Source of the DNA: a phage
Sequence record: PZ386947.1
Direction: 5' to 3' (one strand)
DNA length: 64,000 bases
In this document: positions 8,028-56,205 of the stretch, piece after piece
Position numbering within the stretch: the first letter of the stretch is position 1
Layout: each line of letters starts with the position of its first letter
The notes under the pieces: generated by a model
The model's database searches: none
What the model was told of the DNA's origin: nothing
What the model saw: the letters and a program-made list of their open reading frames with translations, nothing else
Made by a program: the position numbers and the translations under genes

Positions 8028-10205
8028 TTAGGCCGCAAGGGCCTTCATAGTTTTAGCGATTTGGGAAACTTCATCATCACTTAAAGAGTTGCGATATCCG
8101 ATGAAGTCGGAAACAATACGGAATTTCTTGGTAAACTCAGCAACCATTTTATCACTGTTTTTTGAAGCATTATTTGATAATACATCAAAAAGATTAGTTA
8201 CTGTCCAGATGTCATGACCGATGGTATCTTTTCCACCATTAAAATATACACCGCGCAATGAACTAACTATATTAGCGAGTCGTGTATATTCTTCAGAAAC
8301 TTCATCTGTACTGAAGTACTTCATCATAAAATCTAGTTCAGGATACTTGATAATTTTATCAATATATCGTTGAGCTGAACTTGAATAACCTACATACTTA
8401 TCATAATCTACATCATCAAAAGCATCTACATATAAATCACGCAAAGCTTCAAAAATACATTGGCACTGACCGAGTTCTTTTACCTTTTTCTGTAAAAGCG
8501 GACGAATAACATAAAATTCATTAATGCCAATAAGATTAGCCATACGAATCAAAATATTCATAGATGGATGACAAAGAGATGTAGTACCATCCATAGAGAA
8601 AATATCAGAACGATGCATATACGCTACATAACCAGTAATTTCATCTGCTTCTGACGTAAGTGTAAATAGTTCCTCTTTTTCCCAGCGCCCGTCTTTAATT
8701 TCAAACTTAAATGCTGTAGCAGCTTTAGGACGAGGAGCTTTACTTTTAACTACCTTTGGAATATAGCTTTTAACTAAAGCTTCAATTTCTGACAAATAAT
8801 GAATGTTAACTTCATCACTTTCAAACATCGCCATAATATCAGGAAGTAAATCAATCTGCGATTCTACTTCTGGGTTAATAAACAGAAGGCGTTCGTTATG
8901 ATGAATATTTAAAGTGTTATTAAATTCACTATCATCTAACGCATGTGCTAATCCACGGACAATATTAACACGATTTTTAATATCATCAATAACGATATTA
9001 ATTTTTGTTGTATTAATACCAAACAGACGATAGCTTGATGCAACGGCTGAAGTTTCATGGCTTTGCTTAATACGTTTCAGCCGAGGGTCAAGATTTACTT
9101 CATACACAACTCCTGCATTGCATAACTTACTATCAGGTTCAAACATGCTCTGCATCTTCTTATATGACAGATTTTTAGTCGTAAATTTGACTGAATTACT
9201 AATCATATAATCTCGAGCAGAATACCCCATCTTCATCAATTCGCGATATGTGTGACGAGGAGATGTAGATTCTTTAAATCGTTTTACATCTTCATTAAAT
9301 GCTTTCTCACTGAGTTCTTTAACTCGTTCAATAATATTTTTACGAGTGCGATCATCCAGTGAAAGAGCCTCGCGAGATGGAGCAATATCAAGTGAACCCA
9401 TTGGAAACTTAATGTAATTCACTTCATTGCGAATGCTTAGCCAGTTACGGTCTCTAATAACACCATCGATAGGATAAACAATACCGCCATAGATAGCATA
9501 CAATCCGCCGCGATCAGGCCAGTATCTTTCTGGATTTACACCGTAATAGTCATCAAAATCTGGAAAATAATCAATTTCGCGGTCAAGACCATTAATGATA
9601 GCCAAATCTTTGAATGGTCGCATGATATAAGAAACTTCATAAGCAAAGTTTCTAAAGTCTTTTTCTTCAACTGGAACTACGATTTCAATGCCAGTTTTAT
9701 CATCTGGACCCATTTCTTTTACGAATGTAGGTTTAATCTGTGGACCATCACCATCCATGTAAGCTACATAACCACGAATTTCACCTTTATGATACGAAGT
9801 AATACTAAACGTATCAGTATAACTAAACGGAGATTTAGAACCTAAACCAAATCCGCCAATGAAATCGTTAGATTCAGCTTTAGATGAACTGAAGTATGAA
9901 TTATACAAGCCAGGAGAATTATCATCACCTTGAATATCAAAATCACTCATACCCGGACCAAAATCTCGACAAACAAATCGCGGGTCTAAACGTCCTGGAA
10001 CTTGTATGATAAATTTTTCAGGATTTCCATTGAGAGCATGGGCATCAATCATATTAGTAATCAATTCACGGACTACTGCGCGAATCTTGTTTGTATACAA
10101 ATCAGATGACAGAATTTTAAATACTTTAGGAGATGCTGTGATGCTAAATGCTTTTGATTTAGAACCATTGCCAAGAATTGTTTCTTTTTCAGTGGTGATA
10201 ATCAT
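8028..10205 (-). CDS. rIIA: rIIA protein (GHKL-ATPase-like)
   Basis: 725 aa as in T4 rIIA; sequence recognised; SD GAGGAAATTATG. Confidence 0.9.
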
Positions 10206-23298: not shown

Positions 23299-23817
23299 TT
23301 AATAGCCTCGGTCTTGACGAGCGAAATTTTCAGCATTTTTCAGATAATAAAGTTTAAATATTTCTTCAGCTGACATTCCAAGAGCAATAAATTTATTCAT
23401 GAAAAAGTGAAATTGGTCAATCAGTTCAAATTTAATTTCAAGCTGATCTTCAGGAGATAAGTCTTGAATTTTCTTGGATTGCATTTCAGAATAACGTTTC
23501 TTCCAAGGTTTCCATACGGCAGAAGCTTCTTTTTCACCATTACTCATACCACCAAGAGAAGTATATAGTTCGCGAGTTTCATCTGCGATATAATCGTCTT
23601 GGTTTCGCAACCAAGCAAGAACTTCTCCTGCAGTTTCAAGTGAATCGGGATGACGATTTGTTTCTGGTTTATCATTAGCCAAACGAATCTGTAAATGCCG
23701 CTGCATATCAAGCATAACCTGCAGTGGGTCAATATTGTGCATAATATTCTCAGCATATGCACGATTTGCTTTATCAACACCTTCGATCAAATGAGCGCAT
23801 TCATTAAAGTGAGCCAT
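23299..23817 (-). CDS. 56: gp56, dCTPase/dUTPase (MazG-like)
   Basis: 172 aa from ATG 23815-23817; sequence recognised (MAHFNECAHLIEGVDKA...); track ORF is a GTG-initiated upstream extension. Confidence 0.85.
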   Translation of the reverse strand: MAHFNECAHLIEGVDKANRAYAENIMHNIDPLQVMLDMQRHLQIRLANDKPETNRHPDSLETAGEVLAWLRNQDDYIADETRELYTSLGGMSNGEKEASAVWKPWKKRYSEMQSKKIQDLSPEDQLEIKFELIDQFHFFMNKFIALGMSAEEIFKLYYLKNAENFARQDRGY

Positions 23818-23851
23818 TATTTTTCCTTTCAATTCATGAGTTAGTAGATTA

Positions 23852-23877
23852 ATTATACAATAAATATATAAAGCAAT
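23852..23877 (-). promoter_or_regulatory. MotA-dependent middle promoter upstream of gene 56
   Basis: MotA box ATTGCTTTA, 11-nt spacer, TATAAT. Confidence 0.5.
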
Positions 23878-23888
23878 AAGGAGGACAT

Positions 23889-24089
23889 ATGGTACAAAAA
23901 TTAATGGCACTTGTTAATGCCATCAAAGGTAATAAAAAGCGTATAGCTTTTACTATTTCTGCTATGGTAGGAATTTTACTCTGGAACTTTATTCTATCAC
24001 CTGTTGCAATTGCACATGGTATTAATATTCCAGTAGTTACTCTTGATACATTCGTAGATCTAGCATTTGCTTTAGTTGGGTTAATTTAA
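23889..24089 (+). CDS. hypothetical small membrane protein (66 aa), only plus-strand candidate gene in the window
   Basis: ORF track; SD AAGGAGG 4 nt before ATG; two hydrophobic segments; fills the 56-61 gap exactly; stop overlaps gp61 stop. Confidence 0.4.
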   Translation: MVQKLMALVNAIKGNKKRIAFTISAMVGILLWNFILSPVAIAHGINIPVVTLDTFVDLAFALVGLI

Positions 24090-25282: not shown

Positions 25283-25909
25283 TTAACCTCTATTCATAAA
25301 AGCATTAAAAATTTGGTCATCAATAGAAACATTTACTTTAGACTGTTTTTCTGATGGTAATTCATATCCACATATTACAATTTTGTGATCAATATCAAAA
25401 TACACAGAAGCAATATGATTAATGATGTTTTCAGTAAAGTCTAAATCAACATCAATATCTTTTTGACCACAGCCCAAAGGATAAATAATGCGAGTAATTC
25501 GATTATCTTTAACAAATATTCCACCGACATACTCTGTACTGCGTTTAAAGTCTACACGCCGACGAAATGAAAAATATTCAGGCTCTTTATGAGCTCGGCT
25601 CATAGGACACAACGAGTAACTAGAATAAGAGATGTCAAATCCTACGCCTTCGATATGAGCCAAAGTGTCATGATTAAACCAATTATAATCGTACGCCAAA
25701 TCCATTAGATTATAATATGTAAAAGGCACCGGATTAACATCATTAGTCACAAGCATGTAATTAGCAACTGCTATAATTTCATTGTTTTTAACGAATACAA
25801 ACCGTGATTGATGCGAATGACCTGGACCCGCGTTTTCACGATTAATGATATAACACTGGGCACCTTTATATTTGTATGTATCTTTGCATTTGTGCATTTG
25901 ATAGAGCAT
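25283..25909 (-). CDS. hypothetical protein (208 aa), 61.2 position
   Basis: ORF track; ATG 25907-25909. Confidence 0.55.
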   Translation of the reverse strand: MLYQMHKCKDTYKYKGAQCYIINRENAGPGHSHQSRFVFVKNNEIIAVANYMLVTNDVNPVPFTYYNLMDLAYDYNWFNHDTLAHIEGVGFDISYSSYSLCPMSRAHKEPEYFSFRRRVDFKRSTEYVGGIFVKDNRITRIIYPLGCGQKDIDVDLDFTENIINHIASVYFDIDHKIVICGYELPSEKQSKVNVSIDDQIFNAFMNRG

Positions 25910-26202
25910 TATTCACCTACCACTTCAGCGATGATATTTTTGTTATTAAAGTTTTTATCGCAATACAGAACATAATTATACTGCATTACACCACCAGACT
26001 TAAGTTGTTTTTGCACTTCAGCTTTCATTTCAGGACGATCGCGCTCAACGATATTCATAATATCCGCTTCAATTTGAGTTTCAACCTCAGTCTGATCCGC
26101 AGTCATAGACCATTCACACAAATCTTTATCATAACCTGCCATAGCAGGCTGAGCAGCACAAGAAGCTAAAGCAAAAATTGTGGCAAAGATAAATTTTTTC
26201 AT
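25909..26202 (-). CDS. sp: Sp (spackle)-like periplasmic protein
   Basis: 97 aa with cleavable signal peptide (…AQPAMA); size and position as T4 sp; SD ACTGAGGAGATTATC. Confidence 0.6.
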   Translation of the reverse strand: MKKFIFATIFALASCAAQPAMAGYDKDLCEWSMTADQTEVETQIEADIMNIVERDRPEMKAEVQKQLKSGGVMQYNYVLYCDKNFNNKNIIAEVVGE

Positions 26203-26230
26203 GATAATCTCCTCAGTAGTTTATGTTTAT

Positions 26231-26260
26231 ATAGTATCTCAATTTCCAACAAAAGTAAAC
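26231..26260 (-). promoter_or_regulatory. T4-type early promoter upstream of sp
   Basis: GTTTAC, 18 nt, TACTAT. Confidence 0.5.
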
Positions 26261-26262
26261 AG

Positions 26263-26520
26263 TTATTTTAAAATTTCTGCGTAATCACATGTTACAAACT
26301 GTTTCTCTAGCTTGACGATTTTACGAAAGTATCTTTTGCATTGGCGAATCTGCCGCTTCGTAGGGCGAACAGCAAACTTAATAAATTCCACTCGACCAAA
26401 TGGAGGACTTTCTTCTGCTGGAATATCTAACACCAATTCCCACGTATCTGCAATAAGTGCTTTGAATTGCGTATTTTTCCTGACGTTATACGGAGTAGGT
26501 TTAAATAAAACAATATGCAT
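26263..26520 (-). CDS. hypothetical protein (85 aa) immediately downstream of dmd (61.4 / tifA position)
   Basis: ATG 26518-26520 with SD GCCGAGGATAAT, one nt after dmd stop; track start is upstream TTG. Confidence 0.45.
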   Translation of the reverse strand: MHIVLFKPTPYNVRKNTQFKALIADTWELVLDIPAEESPPFGRVEFIKFAVRPTKRQIRQCKRYFRKIVKLEKQFVTCDYAEILK

Positions 26521-26521
26521 A

Positions 26522-26704
26522 TTATCCTCGGCAATCCACTTCACACACTTTCTTGTCATCAATGAAAGCTTTAACTAATGCTTTATTAACTTCAGCATAT
26601 TGAGTAGTAGCCCATTGAACGTCATCTTTCATCATTGTGGTTTCTTTAGTAAACATGCTTTCATTCTTAAACCACCCCATAAAAACTACCTTTACCAATT
26701 CCAT
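26522..26704 (-). CDS. dmd: Dmd, antitoxin against host RnlA/LsoA
   Basis: 60 aa; sequence recognised as T4 Dmd (MELVKVVFMGWFKNESMF...); SD AATGAGGAGATTGTT. Confidence 0.7.
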   Translation of the reverse strand: MELVKVVFMGWFKNESMFTKETTMMKDDVQWATTQYAEVNKALVKAFIDDKKVCEVDCRG

Positions 26705-26733
26705 AACAATCTCCTCATTTAACCAACAAGACT

Positions 26734-26763
26734 ACTATACCATAGTCTTGTCAGCTTGTAAAC
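26734..26763 (-). promoter_or_regulatory. T4-type early promoter upstream of dmd
   Basis: GTTTAC, 18 nt, TGG TATAGT. Confidence 0.5.
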
Positions 26764-28190
26764 TAAAATTTTAATTCATTTGCCAAAGCATCTAACTGAG
26801 CTCGAGTGGATTCATTTCTTTGATAGCGATTCTGCTCAGCCTGAATCTGTTGTGAACCTGCTACTTCACTCACTTCAGTTGGAGTAGAATCTTGTTCAAT
26901 TTCTACCCATTTTTGATTTCCTTTTTGAACACCCATCAAAAACTTATTCCACTTATTCTTATCACCATATCGTGATTTGATTTGCTTAATGAGTTGTTGT
27001 TCAGCAGCTGCTAGCTCTTCGGTTTCAATGACCGCAAGCATAAAATCAGCTGTTGCTGGAAGACCAGCAGATTCTGCAATATCGCTCATGTTAACATCAG
27101 AAGAATCCCAAGCCTGTTTACCAACCTGTGCTGCAGTCCAAAGAACAGTTTCGGTTTCAACAGCAAGAGCACGCAATTCCTCTGCAATAGCTTTAACAGT
27201 TGTGTAACTATTTTCTGAGTAAACTCTGATGCGGCAAGATTTACAAATACCTAGATAGTCGACAATAATGATTGTTGGAACAAAATTCTTTTTGAGCTTC
27301 AATTCATTCAAGAGAGACCTGAATGTGTTAGCATCTGCCCCACCAGTAGGGTACTGTTTAACAATTAAACGACCGAGAGTAGATTTCTCACGCCATTTTT
27401 CCATTTTTCCTTTATACTCAGCGTAAGAAATATGCCCATCATCAATGTCATCAAGAGAAACATCAAGCATATTAGCGTCAATACGTTTAGCACAGACTTC
27501 TTCTGCCATTTCCATGGAAATGTAAAGAACATTATGTCCGAGCTGTAAATAATCTGCCGCTAATGAACACAATCCTAATGATTTACCAACGTTAACGCCA
27601 GCCATTAAAACGTTCAGTGTTCCAGTTTCAGCTCCGCCTTTCGTAATTTTGTTTAGAATTCTGAGTTTAAATGGAACCTTACGAGCTTTATTCATATAAG
27701 ATAGCCAACGTGCTTCGTAGTCATCCATCCAATCATGACCAACGTAGCTATCAAATGAAATTGATAATGCTTGGCGCATGATGTCAGGAATAGCACCAAC
27801 ATCCGGCATTTTCTTATTTCGTTTTTCCGGAGGAAGTTCAGCATTAGTTTGAATTTCGATTATTTTAGACGTAGCATTAAACATCGCCCTTTGCTGAACA
27901 TATTTTTCTGTTTCTTTTATTAACCAACTGTGGTCTTCCGGAGAATCAGCTAGTTTTGAAATAAGTGTTTTTACACCAGAATATTCCGTTTCAGTAAATG
28001 AACTATTTTCTAATGCAACATTTAACGCATTAATAGATGGAACGCTATGATACTCATTAACATGGGATTTAATTAATTTGAATGTATTTTTAGCTGGACC
28101 ACTTTCAAAATATTCTGAATCCATATATGGCCAAACTTTTGAAAAATAAGCTTGATCAAATATGAGATGAGAAAGAATAATTTCTACCAC
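26763..28190 (-). CDS. 41: gp41, replicative DNA helicase (DnaB-like)
   Basis: 475 aa as T4 gp41; GTG start with SD TTAAGGAG; Walker A GVNVGKS. Confidence 0.9.
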   Translation of the reverse strand: MVEIILSHLIFDQAYFSKVWPYMDSEYFESGPAKNTFKLIKSHVNEYHSVPSINALNVALENSSFTETEYSGVKTLISKLADSPEDHSWLIKETEKYVQQRAMFNATSKIIEIQTNAELPPEKRNKKMPDVGAIPDIMRQALSISFDSYVGHDWMDDYEARWLSYMNKARKVPFKLRILNKITKGGAETGTLNVLMAGVNVGKSLGLCSLAADYLQLGHNVLYISMEMAEEVCAKRIDANMLDVSLDDIDDGHISYAEYKGKMEKWREKSTLGRLIVKQYPTGGADANTFRSLLNELKLKKNFVPTIIIVDYLGICKSCRIRVYSENSYTTVKAIAEELRALAVETETVLWTAAQVGKQAWDSSDVNMSDIAESAGLPATADFMLAVIETEELAAAEQQLIKQIKSRYGDKNKWNKFLMGVQKGNQKWVEIEQDSTPTEVSEVAGSQQIQAEQNRYQRNESTRAQLDALANELKF

Positions 28191-29789: not shown

Positions 29790-30632
29790 TTAATCAACTG
29801 CTATTGGATGAATAGCATTAAACTTATGAAATGCTTCTGATTTTTCTTTACGAGAAACACACATGCGAAGAACCTTTAATGGCTCGTCTTCTTCACCCAA
29901 CGATTTTCGTTTTTCAATATTAGAAGTTTTCCAACGAGCTTGCTCTGGAAACTCTCTATTGATTTGCTCAAGCGCTCTATTATGTTTAGAATTACTACGA
30001 ATTGAACTGCACCCGCCAGGAGCTTGTGCTTTTCCAGATACAACCAGATATTTGAACAAGGCCAAATGCGGATAACCTTGATTAATTAAATTGAGAAATG
30101 CATACATATCTTCGCACAAATCAATTTTTCCATACCCAATTTGTTCTGTCGTAAGTTTTCCGAGGTCATACCATGTATTCGTGAATCCATATGAATTTTC
30201 ACGATAATTACCCCAAGATGAAGTAATTTTAAAAATAGGTAGACGAGCATGGCCATGATAATACCCACAATCCATGGCATCCTCAACATATTGAATCAAT
30301 TCATAGAACTGTTCACGAGTCAATTGATTGACTTTATCCACACAACGACGATCATCTCTTTTTCGCATTGAACTCATACGAATAGTAGTATCATCGTCAA
30401 TCATCCAGATTCGTTGACCTGCATACATATCAGTAATTGCTTTACGAGTACCAGCAATTCCATTTACATCATCAGGAATAGTTATAATTTTAGCTCTAGA
30501 CCCATAGGCATCATAATAAGCTTTTTCTTCATGTTCACGCACTACAATATGGGGTTCATAATCAGTCGGAAACATATCAAGGGCAGAAACTGCCCCGACA
30601 CGCTGATAACTTGGAATTACGAATTGAATCAT
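29790..30632 (-). CDS. ba-gt: glycosyltransferase (GT-A, DxD), most likely T2/T6-type beta-glucosyl-HMC-alpha-glucosyltransferase
   Basis: 280 aa from ATG 30630-30632 overlapping gene 42 stop; DDD motif; occupies the T4 beta-gt slot between uvsX and 42. Confidence 0.55.
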   Translation of the reverse strand: MIQFVIPSYQRVGAVSALDMFPTDYEPHIVVREHEEKAYYDAYGSRAKIITIPDDVNGIAGTRKAITDMYAGQRIWMIDDDTTIRMSSMRKRDDRRCVDKVNQLTREQFYELIQYVEDAMDCGYYHGHARLPIFKITSSWGNYRENSYGFTNTWYDLGKLTTEQIGYGKIDLCEDMYAFLNLINQGYPHLALFKYLVVSGKAQAPGGCSSIRSNSKHNRALEQINREFPEQARWKTSNIEKRKSLGEEDEPLKVLRMCVSRKEKSEAFHKFNAIHPIAVD

Positions 30633-48602: not shown

Positions 48603-50416
48603 TGGTGTTTAACCCTATGCATGATTTCTTTATTTTTACCGAGATTAAATCCGCGTTCGTTCGGATTTCCCAAATAACCACATGTTCTTCTTATTGTGTT
48701 CATCTTTTTAGGATCAGTTTCTCCACAAATAGAACAAACAAATCCGTTTTCAGTAGGAGTCATTTCATGGGTACTTCCACATGTAAAACATTTATCTACT
48801 GGCATATTAACACCAAAATAATCTAAATGTTGTGCAGCATAATCCCATACGGCCTCAAGACCCTTTAAGTTATTTTTCATATCAGGAAGTTCAACATAAG
48901 AAATGTGACCACCTGTCGCAATGAAATGATATGGCGCTTCACGAGAAATCTTTTCAAACGGAGTAATATTTTCTTCTACTGAAACGTGGAAACTGTTAGT
49001 GTACCAGCCTTTATCGGTAACATCTTTTACACTTCCATATTTTTCTGTATCAAGTTTACAGAAGCGATAACAAAGGTTTTCAGCAGGAGTCGAATATAAA
49101 CTAAAAGCAAATCCAGTTCTTTCAGTCCACTGTTTAAGATGAGCATTCATTTTAGTTAAAATTTCTTGTCCAATATCACGACCGACAAGAATATTCAATT
49201 CGTGAATACCAATGTATCCTAGGGACACTGAACTTCTACCGTTTTTAAATAACTCAATTATGTCGTCATCAGGTTTAAGACGAACCCCGAATGCACCTTC
49301 TTGGTAAAGAATAGGAGCAACAGTAGCTTTAACTCCTTTTAAGGAACTAATTCTACACATCAATGCTTCAAAACATAAATCCATTCGTTCATTGAACAAT
49401 TCAACAAATTTCTGTTCATTGAATTGTGTTCCAATATAAGAATCTAACGCGATGCGAGGAAGATTCAATGTTACAACACCAAGATTATTACGTCCATCAA
49501 GAATTTCATTGCCAGTCGAATCTTTCCATACGCTCAAGAAACTACGGCATCCCATCGGAGAAACAGGAACAGATGAACCAGTGATAGCTTTATTGTTCTT
49601 AGCCGAAATGATGTCAGGATACATTCTTTTGCTTGCGCACTCTAAAGCAAGCTGCTTAATATCATAGTTCGGGTCGTCTTTATAAAGATTAACACCTTCT
49701 TCAACGAACATAACAAGCTTAGGGAAAATAGGAGTTATCCCATCACGACCAAGACCTTTAATACGATTTTTCAGAATTGCTTTCTGAATCATTCGTTCAG
49801 TCCAGTCAGTTCCCGTACCAAATGTAATTGTTACAAAAGGCGTTTGTCCGTTTGAACTAAAGAGAGTATTTACTTCATATTCATAAGCTTGGAATGCATC
49901 GTATACGTCTTTTTCTGTTTTAGATTGAGCATAATTTAACGCATCAGCGATTTGCCATTTTTCTGCATCCTCAATATGTTTTGCATAGGTGCGTTTAACA
50001 TAAGGAGAAAGTACTTTATCTACATTAGCAAAAGTCGTTCCGCCGTATTGATGGGAAGCAACCTGTGCAGTAATTTGTGCCATAATTGCAGTAGCAACAC
50101 CGATTGATTTAGGAGTTTCAATCTGTGCATTACCAAGCTTAAATCCATTCTCAAGCATTCCTTTTAAATCTACTAAACAACAATTAGTAAATGGAAGAGC
50201 AGGGGAATAATCAATATCGTGGAAATGAATAATTCCGCTTTCATGCGCTTTCATAATAAAAGACGGGACCATATTTTTGGCAATGTGTTTAGACACAATA
50301 CCAGCCATAAGGTCCCGTTGAGTTGGAAAAACACGAGAATCTTTATTAGCATTCTCGTTTAAAAGGTCTTTATTAGTTTTATGAATCAATCCTTCAATTT
50401 CTTTTTCAATTGTCAT
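48599..50416 (-). CDS. nrdD: NrdD, anaerobic ribonucleotide reductase, uninterrupted
   Basis: 605 aa continuous ORF; C-terminal glycyl-radical motif RRTCGYLG and zinc site; no intron. Confidence 0.9.
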   Translation of the reverse strand: MTIEKEIEGLIHKTNKDLLNENANKDSRVFPTQRDLMAGIVSKHIAKNMVPSFIMKAHESGIIHFHDIDYSPALPFTNCCLVDLKGMLENGFKLGNAQIETPKSIGVATAIMAQITAQVASHQYGGTTFANVDKVLSPYVKRTYAKHIEDAEKWQIADALNYAQSKTEKDVYDAFQAYEYEVNTLFSSNGQTPFVTITFGTGTDWTERMIQKAILKNRIKGLGRDGITPIFPKLVMFVEEGVNLYKDDPNYDIKQLALECASKRMYPDIISAKNNKAITGSSVPVSPMGCRSFLSVWKDSTGNEILDGRNNLGVVTLNLPRIALDSYIGTQFNEQKFVELFNERMDLCFEALMCRISSLKGVKATVAPILYQEGAFGVRLKPDDDIIELFKNGRSSVSLGYIGIHELNILVGRDIGQEILTKMNAHLKQWTERTGFAFSLYSTPAENLCYRFCKLDTEKYGSVKDVTDKGWYTNSFHVSVEENITPFEKISREAPYHFIATGGHISYVELPDMKNNLKGLEAVWDYAAQHLDYFGVNMPVDKCFTCGSTHEMTPTENGFVCSICGETDPKKMNTIRRTCGYLGNPNERGFNLGKNKEIMHRVKHQ

Positions 50417-50886
50417 TTTAAACTCTTTCTAAGCTGCTTCTTAAATGAAGCTATTAATTGTGTTTTGGTGTCAGATTCATTATATTCAAATCCTCTTTGA
50501 AGCATCTCGGCCATCATTTCCTCTTTTCCTAAACGAGAAAATTCCTTTGTTTTATCTCCAACAAAGTTAGGGTGAATATTATTTTGGGTGTAATCGGATT
50601 TTAAATAAGTAAGTAAATTTTCTAACCATTCAAGATAATCAACACCTTGTCCCTTTAAGCCAGAACGATTAAATTTGTGCTTCATTTGACCTTCTGCGGC
50701 ATTACAGAGATTACAAAGCAATCCACGTACCTTTCCTGCTTTTGGTCCATTTAATTCATGGTCATGATCAAGATGATTAGCTTGAACATCAGGATTTAGT
50801 TCTCGTTGGCAAATTAAGCATTTACCGTTTTGTGCATCATAAAATTTCTGTTTTTCTTCTTTATATAATTTGCCAGTCAATAACAT
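50413..50886 (-). CDS. 49: gp49, endonuclease VII (Holliday junction resolvase)
   Basis: 157 aa as T4 endo VII; sequence recognised; zinc-binding cysteines. Confidence 0.85.
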   Translation of the reverse strand: MLLTGKLYKEEKQKFYDAQNGKCLICQRELNPDVQANHLDHDHELNGPKAGKVRGLLCNLCNAAEGQMKHKFNRSGLKGQGVDYLEWLENLLTYLKSDYTQNNIHPNFVGDKTKEFSRLGKEEMMAEMLQRGFEYNESDTKTQLIASFKKQLRKSLK

Positions 50887-50927
50887 AATAAACCCTTACC
50901 TTAAATAGATAAGGGTATTTATTATTT

Positions 50928-51413
50928 TCAAGTATTGTAAAACATTTGATGCAATCGCTTATATTGCCGAATCTTTTGGTCAGAAAAAGAAATTTGGGTT
51001 TCAAGCCATTCAATATATTCTGCCGCAGCTTGCATCAAATTTCCTTCATAGCCATCGTTATTTTCTTGTGCAGCTAATTTAGCTAATGCGTATGAAATAC
51101 GTTCACCCTGAAAATCGGCTTTAGGCTTCTGAACAACTTGATTAGTTCGCTCTACAACTTCTTCAATTTCGCCATTTTCGACTGATTCAGTATTCCACAA
51201 ACACCAATACGTAATTGGCTTATCGTAGATGTTAATAATCTTTCCATCAGAAAGTTCAATTTCAATAATTCCAGTATCAGGTTCTATATCATCTTCACAT
51301 TCTTTTGCAAGTTCACGAACCTTAAAGACAGTACCTGCACTAAGTTCCGGCCAGTAATTACACAGCCCTGTATCAGCACGATTAATTCTAAACCACTTAT
51401 CTACTGTAATCAT
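50928..51413 (-). CDS. pin: Pin-like protein (inhibitor of host Lon protease), 161 aa
   Basis: ATG 51411-51413 after SD GGAGATGGGAC; size and position as T4 pin; sequence not independently recognised. Confidence 0.45.
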   Translation of the reverse strand: MITVDKWFRINRADTGLCNYWPELSAGTVFKVRELAKECEDDIEPDTGIIEIELSDGKIINIYDKPITYWCLWNTESVENGEIEEVVERTNQVVQKPKADFQGERISYALAKLAAQENNDGYEGNLMQAAAEYIEWLETQISFSDQKIRQYKRLHQMFYNT

Positions 51414-51536
51414 GTCCCATCTCCATATCAATTAAGTCATTTATCGTTGGTTCATTATATACTGTTTCTTCATCAGTGTAAACCGGTTCTTCCGGCTCTG
51501 GCTCTACAGTTTCCCATCTAGCCGCCCACCAAGGTT

Positions 51537-51857
51537 TTATAGCGTAATCCATTCTCGTACTGTCTGAGTTACTACACGTTCATGGGGCTCGACTAGTTCA
51601 ACAGTCGGAACTGCATAATACCAGTCAGAATGATAAGAACCTGACCGAGATTCATTTACCGCTACATGTACATTATGTTTTGGACTAAAGTAAACAAACT
51701 GACGATATTGGCATTTACCATCTTGCACCCAGTCTTCTATTTCGATAGGTTTAAGATAGTCGGAAAAATCGAAATCATAGTTTTCCGAAAATGCATCATG
51801 GTCTTCAATGATTTCGCTCAGAACTGCATCAACATCTAATTTATTTTCAATAGTCAT
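51537..51857 (-). CDS. hypothetical protein (106 aa)
   Basis: ORF track; ATG 51855-51857. Confidence 0.5.
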   Translation of the reverse strand: MTIENKLDVDAVLSEIIEDHDAFSENYDFDFSDYLKPIEIEDWVQDGKCQYRQFVYFSPKHNVHVAVNESRSGSYHSDWYYAVPTVELVEPHERVVTQTVREWITL

Positions 51858-51867
51858 TTTTCACCAA

Positions 51868-52038
51868 TTAATTTCGCAATTTATTAAGTTCTTCATAATC
51901 AATCCAGGATTCTAATCCTGATGGCAAATCACATTCAATTTCCCAAAGAAGTTCTTCAATTTTATGAAGACGATCTAGTTCTTCAGCAGGAATAGTAACC
52001 ATTGACGGAGCTCTTGCTACATTAATATCGTAAATCAT
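51868..52038 (-). CDS. small hypothetical protein (56 aa; alternative GTG start at 52077)
   Basis: ATG 52036-52038 two nt after upstream stop; track ORF starts at GTG. Confidence 0.4.
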   Translation of the reverse strand: MIYDINVARAPSMVTIPAEELDRLHKIEELLWEIECDLPSGLESWIDYEELNKLRN

Positions 52039-52040
52039 AT

Positions 52041-52256
52041 TTACACCAGTTTGACCATACAATCGCCGTATTTCCACTTAGAAATAGACTTTTCACCATT
52101 AGAATAATAAACTTCAAGTTTAGCACGATTATTTTTAATTTGAATAACCTTTGCTGTCATCAAAGTTCCATACCCATAATAAACTGCAACTTCATCACCT
52201 ACATATACAGCGCTTCCGCGGTAATCGTGAATATAGTCAGTTCCTTCGAGCATCAT
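52041..52256 (-). CDS. hypothetical protein (71 aa)
   Basis: ORF track; ATG overlaps nrdC stop. Confidence 0.45.
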   Translation of the reverse strand: MMLEGTDYIHDYRGSAVYVGDEVAVYYGYGTLMTAKVIQIKNNRAKLEVYYSNGEKSISKWKYGDCMVKLV

Positions 52257-52516
52257 TTAAAATATTCTCGCAGTTGGTCAAATCCACCAATATGACTTCC
52301 ATCAGGAGCAAATACCTGAGGCATTGTCAAGCCGATTTGAGTATCACGACCTAGTTTAGTCAGAAGCTCAGCGATTTTCTCATCATCAAAAACACCTTTT
52401 TCCGGCATAATGTTGATAAATTCAAACGGCTGTTTCTTCACGGTCAAAAGACGTTTTGCATTATCGCAATACACACATTTATGAATGTTGCTATCATAAC
52501 CATATACTTTAAACAT
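52253..52516 (-). CDS. nrdC: NrdC thioredoxin/glutaredoxin
   Basis: 87 aa as T4 NrdC; redox motif CVYC; SD AAGGAATAAT. Confidence 0.75.
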   Translation of the reverse strand: MFKVYGYDSNIHKCVYCDNAKRLLTVKKQPFEFINIMPEKGVFDDEKIAELLTKLGRDTQIGLTMPQVFAPDGSHIGGFDQLREYFK

Positions 52517-52517
52517 A

Positions 52518-52760
52518 TTATTCCTTAATTCCTAGTACTTGTTTAAAAGTCTCGTCGTAATCAAGACTTTGGCCCGTTTGTTCTTTATGTTTGTATATAA
52601 TATCACTTACTTCTGATAGCATATTTTTATATGAACGAGTTAAAGCAGATTTAAGCACGCTGTATCTATCAGGAAATTTACCATGTTCATTATAATAAGC
52701 TATTGCTAATTCATGGACTGCCTTTTCAGCAGCCTCCATATATTCTTTACGCTTGGTCAT
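52518..52760 (-). CDS. hypothetical protein (80 aa)
   Basis: ORF track. Confidence 0.45.
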
Positions 52761-52762
52761 TT

Positions 52763-53152
52763 TTAATCCAAAATATTATTAGGCATTGGTTGAACACTCA
52801 CAAGTTCTTTAAAGAACTCAGTAGAGTCAGGCAATTTAACCATTTCCGGAGCATGCTTACTGAATTTATGTTTACATTGACGGCATTTATATTCAAGCTC
52901 TGGTTTACGCCAGTTAATCAATTGAACTTGTTCAGTACCGCATTCAGGGCAATTAGGAACGTTTTTAGAAGCTCTTTCACGTCGTTCAACCATAGCCATA
53001 ATAGCATCCCATGCTGGAGGTTTAAAATCTAAATCGTCGCAGCCGTGAATCTTTCCACGCATTTCCATATCATCTTCCTCACCAGCCATAATAATTTTAA
53101 TTAGACTAGAATTACTTGAAGCTGCAATATCTTCTAATAAACGCTTTTTCAT
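52763..53152 (-). CDS. C4 zinc-ribbon protein (129 aa)
   Basis: ORF track; CPECG...CRQC motif. Confidence 0.5.
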
Positions 53153-54075
53153 TTCAGTACCTCAATAGCATCACGTAAACCATTTGCTTTGGCGGTTAAA
53201 GCCTTAAGAACTTTAGTATGCTCTTCAATTTGTTTTTCAACTTCAATCAAACGAGCATTGAGATATTCGCGTTCTTCTTTCATAGTATCATTTCCATGAT
53301 TAGATTTTGGTGTAGGTTTAAATTCACTAGGGTCCTTTAATTTAATAACAAATTTAGTTTCAAACAGTGAAAGACCATAATTCGTATTATCATCAAAGGA
53401 TTTGACTACATCCATATCAGATAATAACACGCGCAAATTATAAGCCAAAGAACTAATAGTTTCATTGTGTTTATTAGCTTCGCGTGGTTTCATATACGGA
53501 AGATTTTTATATATCTCATGCGGAGCGCAAACGATAATTGACAATTCAAATTGTCCATTCTGGGACGATGGAATGAATTTAGCCGTAACCCAGTCTTTTA
53601 CATTCACATTAATAGTACGGTTATCACCATGACAAAACAGTCTACGAGAATGCTTAAAAAGCATATTCACGTTATTATTGAATTCGTGTGAAAATTCACT
53701 AGCAAATTTTTCTTTACTATCTTTAGAAAACCATTCTTCTAAATAAGTTCTTTTCACATCGTTAATAATATTAAATGTAACAACACTAGCATTTGATACA
53801 TTAGTCTCAATGTAGCTTGGATACATAAATTTTTTAACATTATTAACAGCTATCACAGAAGATAGTAATCGGGAACGTTTGAACCACTCGAGCAAAGAAC
53901 CAAGAGAATGTGAATACGCATTTTGTGTATCTTTACAAATATGGTTTTCCCATCCAATATAGTCTAAAAAATCACGAAGAATATTATTGATTACTGCTCT
54001 GTGTCCTATCTGATAATCACGATGTTTAGTAATAAGACTGTCAAAATAATCAATATAATGTTTACGAGTTTTCAT
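53149..54075 (-). CDS. hypothetical protein (308 aa) with C-terminal coiled coil; first of a tandem array
   Basis: ORF track; SD GTGAGAAGAAC; heptad-like C-terminal 45 aa. Confidence 0.55.
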   Translation of the reverse strand: MKTRKHYIDYFDSLITKHRDYQIGHRAVINNILRDFLDYIGWENHICKDTQNAYSHSLGSLLEWFKRSRLLSSVIAVNNVKKFMYPSYIETNVSNASVVTFNIINDVKRTYLEEWFSKDSKEKFASEFSHEFNNNVNMLFKHSRRLFCHGDNRTINVNVKDWVTAKFIPSSQNGQFELSIIVCAPHEIYKNLPYMKPREANKHNETISSLAYNLRVLLSDMDVVKSFDDNTNYGLSLFETKFVIKLKDPSEFKPTPKSNHGNDTMKEEREYLNARLIEVEKQIEEHTKVLKALTAKANGLRDAIEVLK

Positions 54076-54129
54076 GTTCTTCTCACTTGGTTAATGATTT
54101 ATACTCCGAGCCATCCTTGGCTTTAAATT

Positions 54130-55128
54130 TTACTTAATTAACTGTAAAGCTTGTTCAAGACGATCCAAGCGATTGACAGATTCTTCCCAAATCCTTTTAG
54201 CCTGCTCATATTCTTTCTGCGCTTTATTAGAAATTTCTAGAACTTCTTTATAAGCTTTTTCTAATGCAATAACTTCTGGACGAATTTCTACCGGTTCAGG
54301 TGAATCATCAAGACATTCCATTAGTTCCTCAAGGGTAGTTTCTTCTTTAGGAGTATTCACAATTTCATCACATTTTTGTTGGTAAATTTCTTTACTAGTA
54401 GGTGAATAAGTACATTTCACTTCACGAAGACTAACTACAATTTTATATCCTTCCCAACCGCATATATTCTTAAAAGGATATGTATGAATATTTTCTACTG
54501 TTTCCATACAGCCCAAAACCGCCTTTAATTGATAAGTTATAGTGCTAGCAATTGAGAAAAATTTATTAATATTCTTTTGGTTAGCGTTTGGTGTAAAAAA
54601 TCCATAATTCACAAAAATAGCTACTTTATTTTCATCAAGCTCATATTCTTTTACGATAATCATATCAGAAGCCAAAGGATGAATTTGACGATAATCGCCA
54701 TAACATAATTTAGAAGCTGATTTTAGAATTTGTCCTTTGAAAAGTCTGAAATTACTAATCCAACGACGAGTAAAAATATTCTCAGGGGCTTCTTTATTAA
54801 GATGATAAGAATTAACATCACCGAACCAATTATATCCTACTACATCTTTAGTTCGTTTAATTTCTTTCCCAAATTTACTAAGAATATCTCTGTTGACTAA
54901 GTATGAAAGAAGACGAGACCCTTTAAAGGTTTTCTTAATGTCATCTTTATCTACACGGCTAGAAATTTCACGAACTTCATGAATAAATTTGCCGGAAGAA
55001 ACAATACTTGCATCAGTATTATTGAGCCATTGATTGATAATAGAAATCACACTATTCTTACTAGACATAGGTTTAACTTTATCATCAATAACGCTATTGA
55101 ATGATTTGATATATTCGTTACGAGTCAT
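54130..55128 (-). CDS. hypothetical protein (332 aa) with C-terminal coiled coil
   Basis: ATG 55126-55128 after SD CTGAGGAGATTATT; track ORF reads through promoter. Confidence 0.55.
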   Translation of the reverse strand: MTRNEYIKSFNSVIDDKVKPMSSKNSVISIINQWLNNTDASIVSSGKFIHEVREISSRVDKDDIKKTFKGSRLLSYLVNRDILSKFGKEIKRTKDVVGYNWFGDVNSYHLNKEAPENIFTRRWISNFRLFKGQILKSASKLCYGDYRQIHPLASDMIIVKEYELDENKVAIFVNYGFFTPNANQKNINKFFSIASTITYQLKAVLGCMETVENIHTYPFKNICGWEGYKIVVSLREVKCTYSPTSKEIYQQKCDEIVNTPKEETTLEELMECLDDSPEPVEIRPEVIALEKAYKEVLEISNKAQKEYEQAKRIWEESVNRLDRLEQALQLIK

Positions 55129-55156
55129 AATAATCTCCTCAGTAGAAAGTAAGAAC

Positions 55157-55186
55157 ATTATACCACATCCTTGTGGCAAAGTAAAC
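55157..55186 (-). promoter_or_regulatory. T4-type early promoter
   Basis: GTTTAC, 18 nt, TGG TATAAT. Confidence 0.5.
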
Positions 55187-56205
55187 TAGTTCAGTGCATT
55201 TAGTGCATTGTTCAGTTTAGAACGTTGCTTCGTGAGATTTTTGACTTTTTCTTGAGCTTTTTCTAGCATCTTTTCAGCTTCTAGCACTTCATTGGTCGCT
55301 TTAACGAGTTCATCATCTACTGCCTTGATAGACTTCTCAATCGCATCCGCGTGCCATTTTTCAACAGGTTTAAGACTCGGATTTTCAATAGGAAGAAAAT
55401 TCACTTTATTGAATTTCCATGCATCTTTATTACCTGAACTATACATCCAAAATTTAGGATCGTTTGATGAGTAATTAGATGAATTTAAGTTATCTTGCAC
55501 TTCTTGCTTTTTCTCTTGCGGGACTTCGTCCTTTCTCAAAAAATCGTATTTAAATGAAACGATCATATCAAGTTCATATGTTGTTGTATGTTCCCAATTT
55601 CGCTCAAAACGAGGTAAAATCTTAGAATGAACAGCGGCAACAACATCCATATACTTAAATGCTTCTGTCAACTGCGATTTAAGGCATTCGCAAATTGAAA
55701 GAGAATTTTTTGTATTAGGTTTAAAGCTAATTCGTGCAGTTCTATTATTTTCTTTTAATGGTCTTACTTCCATCTGAAGAGTATAACCATCAAATTTCAG
55801 GTTCTTTAAGTTAATATCAGAACCTTTTAATCGACTAGCCGTCGACAAAATTTGCTTTAATTGTTTACGGAATAGAGCAATAAATCTCCATTCAATACGA
55901 TAATGATTTGGATTGAAAAATCCAGATGATAAATCGACCTTACTCTGACCAACACCTTGAACAAACAGAGGATTTTTATAATCAATAGTTTTACAGAAAT
56001 CGGTGAGCTGCTCACGAGCAGTCATTTGTGTAATATATCCCGCTTTACTAAAATGACGTAACCATTCACTGCTATTCATATACTTAAAGTGAATGGAACT
56101 ATTAACTCTATCAGGGTCTAAATTATTTTGGCACAAAAATGTCATAACATCACGAGTATAGCTGGCATTACGAACCATATCTTCAATTTGAGAACGAGTT
56201 TTCAT
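55186..56205 (-). CDS. hypothetical protein (339 aa) with C-terminal coiled coil
   Basis: ORF track; ATG 56203-56205. Confidence 0.55.
   Translation of the reverse strand: MKTRSQIEDMVRNASYTRDVMTFLCQNNLDPDRVNSSIHFKYMNSSEWLRHFSKAGYITQMTAREQLTDFCKTIDYKNPLFVQGVGQSKVDLSSGFFNPNHYRIEWRFIALFRKQLKQILSTASRLKGSDINLKNLKFDGYTLQMEVRPLKENNRTARISFKPNTKNSLSICECLKSQLTEAFKYMDVVAAVHSKILPRFERNWEHTTTYELDMIVSFKYDFLRKDEVPQEKKQEVQDNLNSSNYSSNDPKFWMYSSGNKDAWKFNKVNFLPIENPSLKPVEKWHADAIEKSIKAVDDELVKATNEVLEAEKMLEKAQEKVKNLTKQRSKLNNALNALN

Follow-up and report, generated by a model that had tools for sequence, protein, structure and literature searches.

A predicted dmd-tifA operon against host RNase toxins in the T4-like Shigella phage CM8

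The dmd-tifA locus and its layout

We analysed a 64,000-nucleotide stretch of phage DNA (record PZ386947.1; hereafter, the window), in which dmd and an ORF of 85 codons directly 3' of it both lie on the minus strand, within the gene order 41 - dmd - 61.4 - sp - 61.2 - 61.1 - 61 that the window shares with T4 (Table 1). Positions 25900-26800 show 100% DNA identity to Shigella phage CM8 (MK962750 / NC_054939, Tequatrovirus cm8) and 98.3% DNA identity to T4. Both ends of the window (its first 6 kb and its last 6 kb) also match CM8 at 100% identity, at record positions 159221-165220 and 49973-55973. The window is hence CM8 in circularly permuted form, window position 8028 corresponding to position 1 of the CM8 record.

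On the coding strand, the junction between the two genes reads ...GAT TGC CGA GGA TAA T ATG CAT..., with the dmd stop codon TAA (26524..26522) separated by a single T (26521) from the ATG of the second gene (26520..26518), whose frame ends with its stop at 26263. The Shine-Dalgarno (SD) sequence GAGGA (26529..26525) is 4 nt 5' of this ATG. These features bear out the original prediction, which had placed within 26263-26704 a 60-residue Dmd and, 1 nt after its stop, an 85-residue ORF with a strong SD, a fair wording for GAGGA. The TAA-T-ATG layout suggests translational coupling of the two genes. A longer, 99-residue form of the second ORF starting at TTG (26263..26562) was considered and set aside, as it would share 41 nt with dmd and as the ATG is used in the T4 and CM8 annotations and in the published 85-residue protein.

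Table 1. Features of the dmd-tifA locus and adjacent genes (window coordinates).
Feature	Position	Strand	Basis
Early promoter of dmd-tifA (sigma-70-type)	26734..26762	-	Promoter scan; T4-identical
Shine-Dalgarno GAGGAG of dmd	26711..26716	-	Sequence reading; 6 nt 5' of ATG
dmd (61.5), 60 aa, ATG start, RnlA/LsoA antitoxin	26522..26704	-	Pfam Dmd, T4/T2 identity, PDB match, PHROG 2102
Shine-Dalgarno GAGGA of tifA, in final dmd codons	26525..26529	-	Sequence reading
tifA (61.4), 85 aa, pI 9.8, predicted ToxN inhibitor	26263..26520	-	T4 gp61.4 identity, Pfam DUF7279
GAAAU, candidate ToxN cleavage motif, tifA codons E82-I83	26273..26277	-	Motif scan
sp (61.3, spackle), periplasmic protein, next gene 3' of tifA	25909..26202	-	Pfam T4_Spackle 1.3e-44
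adfA (61.2), anti-DarT factor A, 208 aa	25283..25909	-	Pfam AdfA 1.5e-136, full length
61.1, 54 aa	25117..25281	-	PHROG 1823, 'unknown function'

Expression signals and neighbouring genes

In a promoter scan of the region, the top promoter-like site consists of a -35 box TTTACA (26762..26757) and a TG-extended -10 box TATAGT (26739..26734) on the minus strand, 17 nt apart, with 10/12 matches besides the extended TG. Its sequence is the same in T4, its -35 box abuts the stop codon of gene 41, and we infer that transcription would start at about 26727. In T4, dmd and tifA form a two-gene operon with an early promoter upstream of dmd (PMC9391042). The 60-nt spacer between tifA and sp contains a weaker promoter-like stretch, read by eye and under the scan threshold. 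A scan for intrinsic terminators over 25800..27000 found none, the interval between tifA and sp included, and the sequence thus does not define where the dmd-tifA transcript ends. A search of the whole window against Rfam returned 0 families at the gathering score, and so no known RNA element at the dmd-tifA locus.

Between the gene 41 stop codon and the dmd SD there is also a 15-bp hairpin (26721..26756, minus strand; -18.9 kcal/mol, z = -4.78 relative to shuffled sequences), in which the one difference between the window and T4 turns a G-U pair into a G-C pair. Because it shares sequence with the -10 box of the early dmd promoter, the full hairpin can form only in RNA that reads through from gene 41. 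As no U-tract follows, it is not a classical terminator, and it may be an element for mRNA 3'-end stability or processing.

The genes dmd and tifA and a homologue of AdfA are all contained in 25283..26704, in the interval that separates gp41 from the primase gene 61. An 'anti-TA island' that includes adfA (61.2) was proposed in the discussion of PMC9391042 and, judged by its sequence, the set of dmd, tifA and adfA in the window, the last being two genes 3' of tifA, is this published island. In the CM8 record, adfA is annotated as hypothetical. The lone gene of the 41-61 interval without a known function is 61.1, which has no Pfam or NCBIfam match and whose product has a Lys/Glu-rich C-terminal tail (KKKKEESKEKEE). 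NCBIfam likewise contained no model matching Dmd, TifA or AdfA.

Other parts of the window were also compared with T4. Where T4 has dam, for a DNA adenine methyltransferase, between genes 56 and 61, CM8 has a spacer of ~270 bp (~23817..24086) with an annotated 66-residue ORF on the plus strand, and tblastn with T4 Dam found nothing within the 64-kb window. The CM8 annotation has a fused 'gp60plus39' topoisomerase large subunit at ~10474..12291 (minus strand), in place of the split gene 60 of T4 with its translational bypass, and a glucosyltransferase beside uvsX (~29790..30632, minus strand) annotated as 'beta-glucosyl-HMC-alpha-glucosyltransferase'. The fused gp60plus39 and this type of glucosyltransferase are features that we take to be T2/T6-like rather than T4-like.

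The Dmd and TifA proteins and their homologues

The dmd product aligns to Pfam PF17587 over positions 1-60/60 (E = 1.8e-45, 153.5 bits) and matches chain B, 'Antitoxin Dmd', of the LsoA-Dmd complex in PDB 5HY3 (5hy3_B, 9.6e-37). It is 59/60 identical to T4 Dmd, with I22T as the sole change, and 100% identical to T2 Dmd, and 100 phage records have it at >= 99% identity. Position 22 is I or T also in more distant homologues, and T22 of the window protein is the T2 allele, a common one. The window gene thus encodes the same protein as in T4 and T2. In T4, Dmd inhibits the host HEPN RNase toxins RnlA and LsoA, and dmd mutants fail on hosts with rnlAB or lsoAB (Otsuka & Yonesaki 2012; Wan et al. 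2016; both as cited in PMC8266594).

The 85-residue protein is identical to T4 gp61.4 (NP_049652) at 85/85 positions, and it matches Pfam DUF7279 at 2.3e-20 and 72.7 bits (cut-off 24.5). The corresponding DNA differs from that of T4 at 3 synonymous and 0 non-synonymous sites (Ser38 AGT/AGC, Arg56 CGG/AGG and Leu71 CTA/TTA). The ORF, which had been proposed as tifA from its position next to dmd, is hence confirmed as 61.4 by alignment. It matches its T4 counterpart in the whole protein, including F41, in promoter and SD and in its place after dmd, and it is set apart by the three synonymous base changes and by residing in another phage, CM8, and no functional difference would be expected.

Residues of TifA with a published role in activity, F41, P53, T54, K55, R56 and R59, are all present in the window protein. 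Its sequence R52-P-T-K-R-Q-I-R-Q-C-K-R-Y-F-R-K is part of a basic segment with 10 K/R in residues 52-73. A search of PDB sequences with TifA gave no match at E <= 1. AlphaFold2 in single-sequence mode gave a model too poor for a fold search (mean pLDDT 45.6), in which the strands (residues 2-6, 22-24 and 27-31) and the helix (residues 55-69) all have low confidence. [quoted passage not shown] We aligned homologues from Tequatrovirus (sb4, HZ_ZJUN4), Mosigvirus (mar005P1, RB69-like), Dhakavirus (dhaeg) and Mosugukvirus (Pectobacterium phage PM2). PTKRQIR is invariant in the 6 aligned homologues from these 4 genera, and the residue-41 loop differs among them (F, S, F, H, Q-E region, W), in line with the published model, in which the RNA-binding helix is conserved and the loop confers specificity. 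The position of tifA directly 3' of dmd is kept in the Tequatrovirus and Mosigvirus loci, and in dhaeg one small ORF lies between the two; in PM2, there is no annotated dmd within the 2.5-kb stretch examined. HZ_ZJUN4 has an extra 84-residue gene between tifA and sp (1519-1773 of its locus stretch), which we considered as a tandem duplicate of tifA and rejected as such, since the two align, with gaps, at 29% identity and PTKRQIR is absent from it; its product is not a TifA homologue.

The Mosigvirus TifA, as in RB69, belongs to the same family as the window protein, with the same place after dmd and the same PTKRQIRQ basic helix, but the aligned homologue is ~57% identical, has 70 residues, lacks the C-terminal extension and carries H41 instead of F41. 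RB69 TifA itself, with 56% identity, H41 and the extension likewise missing, is the more potent ToxN inhibitor (PMC9391042, PMC10853763). Within Tequatrovirus, TifA of Shigella phage sb4 (1201-1458 of its locus stretch) has a natural S41, the strong allele, whereas that of CM8 has F41, the weaker one.

Mechanism, alternative readings and implications

Our assignment draws on published work with T4. When T4 was evolved on E. coli carrying toxIN, it underwent segmental amplification of the two-gene locus formed by dmd (61.5) and 61.4, and the latter was renamed tifA, for 'ToxN inhibitory factor A', ToxN being the toxin of the type III system toxIN (Srikant, Guegler and Laub, eLife 2022; PMC9391042). 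Expression of tifA abolished defence by toxIN and rescued ToxN toxicity, ToxN co-precipitated with TifA-FLAG, and T4 tifA knock-outs lost ~100-fold in plating efficiency on chromosomal toxIN; the wild-type single copy of T4 tifA was insufficient against toxIN on a ~20-copy plasmid (PMC9391042). That the T4 gene beside dmd inhibits ToxIN, as stated in the original prediction, is therefore correct, and T4 61.4 lies directly 3' of dmd. A 2026 paper reports that the homing endonuclease SegB is needed for the tifA locus to be amplified (PMC13096335).

TifA binds both ToxN and RNA, the latter by its basic C-terminal helix, which is capped by P53-T54, and the P53A T54A and K55A R56A R59A variants no longer bind RNA, co-precipitate ToxN or give rescue (Guegler et al., NAR 2023; PMC10853763). 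The ToxN-TifA complex is a large, high-molecular-weight RNP enriched in 16S rRNA, and F41S or F41H makes T4 TifA stronger, residue 41 being in a loop at the predicted ToxN interface (PMC10853763). The co-precipitation of TifA with ToxN and the tuning of potency by residue 41 could also be read as plain stoichiometric blocking, in which TifA occupies the active site of ToxN or its toxI groove much as Dmd acts on RnlA, with RNA binding as a mere side effect of its basic charge. We consider this distinctly unlikely, given that the helix substitutions remove RNA binding, ToxN co-precipitation and rescue together and that the complex has the size of an RNP. Since RNA binding is needed, TifA differs from Dmd in being more than a simple blocker of an active site, and this refines the earlier reading of the locus. 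Dmd is a phage protein antitoxin for a type II HEPN toxin and binds a groove directly, whereas TifA is aimed at a type III toxin and requires RNA.

The candidate motif at 26273..26277 is GAAAU, the consensus for ToxN cleavage. Its presence in tifA mRNA, together with the RNA nature of the native ToxN antitoxin, would favour an active tifA transcript, acting as an RNA decoy or pseudo-antitoxin or as a competitive GAAAU substrate. For such a role there is a parallel in the pseudo-ToxI RNA of Pectobacterium phage PhiTE (Blower et al. 2012, as cited in PMC9391042), also a phage substitute antitoxin against ToxN but an RNA mimic of toxI rather than a protein and with no sequence relationship to TifA. 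Yet in T4, whose TifA is identical to that of the window, deletion of the tifA start codon inactivated the gene and a recoded version (55/258 bases changed) was active, so that translation is required, and ablation of a putative ToxN site at the tifA 3' end had no effect on inhibition (PMC9391042). GAAAU at 26273..26277 is consequently not part of the mechanism, and activity of the transcript itself is very improbable. That the ORF is a chance or decaying frame 3' of dmd with no protein of its own, as its shortness, the label 'hypothetical protein' in nearly all listed records and the PHROGs entry of unknown function might suggest, can be dismissed with near certainty in view of the protein's 100% conservation relative to T4 with only synonymous DNA differences, its Pfam family match and good SD, its occurrence in 675 records down to 30-57% identity with PTKRQIR invariant among the aligned homologues, and the published start-codon-deletion and recoding genetics, which require the protein (PMC9391042).

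The locus is thus, very probably, a dmd-tifA operon, carried by the T4-like Shigella phage CM8 and working as in T4, and nothing in its sequence contradicts this assignment. Judging by the sequence and the T4 precedent, transcription of dmd and tifA by host RNA polymerase would begin straight after infection at the early promoter next to the gene 41 stop codon. Because of the 1-base gap and the tifA ribosome-binding site within dmd, the two proteins would be made together, probably by translational coupling. On host shut-off by the phage, labile antitoxins would vanish and free RNase toxins that would destroy phage mRNA. Dmd would then stand in for the lost RnlB or LsoB, as shown for T4, and TifA for the lost toxI RNA, as shown for the identical T4 protein and for its RB69 homologue. 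TifA would simultaneously grip ToxN, by a surface that includes the residue-41 loop, and RNA, by the basic helix with P53, T54, K55, R56 and R59, and in the resulting large RNP rich in 16S rRNA, ToxN would be unable to cut phage transcripts; the trapping of ToxN on rRNA is what the authors of that work proposed. We infer by analogy that CM8 TifA and Dmd act as their T4 counterparts. The view of the pair as a compact counter-defence locus against RnlA/LsoA and ToxN is supported by the published dmd-tifA operon and 'anti-TA island'.

A further refinement concerns dosage, a single copy of the T4 allele being insufficient against plasmid-borne toxIN. Extrapolating from T4, one CM8 tifA copy should neutralise single-copy toxIN and should fail against toxIN on a multicopy plasmid, short of locus amplification or a change of F41 to S or H. 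As regards range, TifA is proposed to tether its toxin to bulk RNA rather than to act by lock-and-key recognition alone, and it might hence also act on RNA-bound RNase toxins other than the close ToxN relatives in the published tests. In published cross-tests, however, TifA did not rescue distant ToxN homologues or TenpN, which speaks against a broad range. The eLife authors considered the other genes of the region to be attractive anti-toxin candidates (PMC9391042). We find it unlikely that TifA blunts further RNA-bound RNase toxins or that 61.1 is an additional anti-toxin factor of the island.

This gene pair is already known, as are its function and mechanism, all published in 2022-2023 for the identical protein. 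Annotation lags behind this literature: tifA is called 'hypothetical protein' in CM8 and in nearly all listed phage records, and has unknown function in PHROGs. Transfer of the names tifA and, for 61.2, adfA is therefore a correct and useful update. One possible source of error is an Enterococcus phage 'TifA' (type IV restriction inhibiting factor A, PMC11322646), which, to go by the title of that paper, is distinct and shares the name alone; this collision could mislead annotation. The F41 allele predicts that CM8, like T4, would be blocked by multicopy but not by single-copy toxIN, and this would matter for host-range prediction in biocontrol use.
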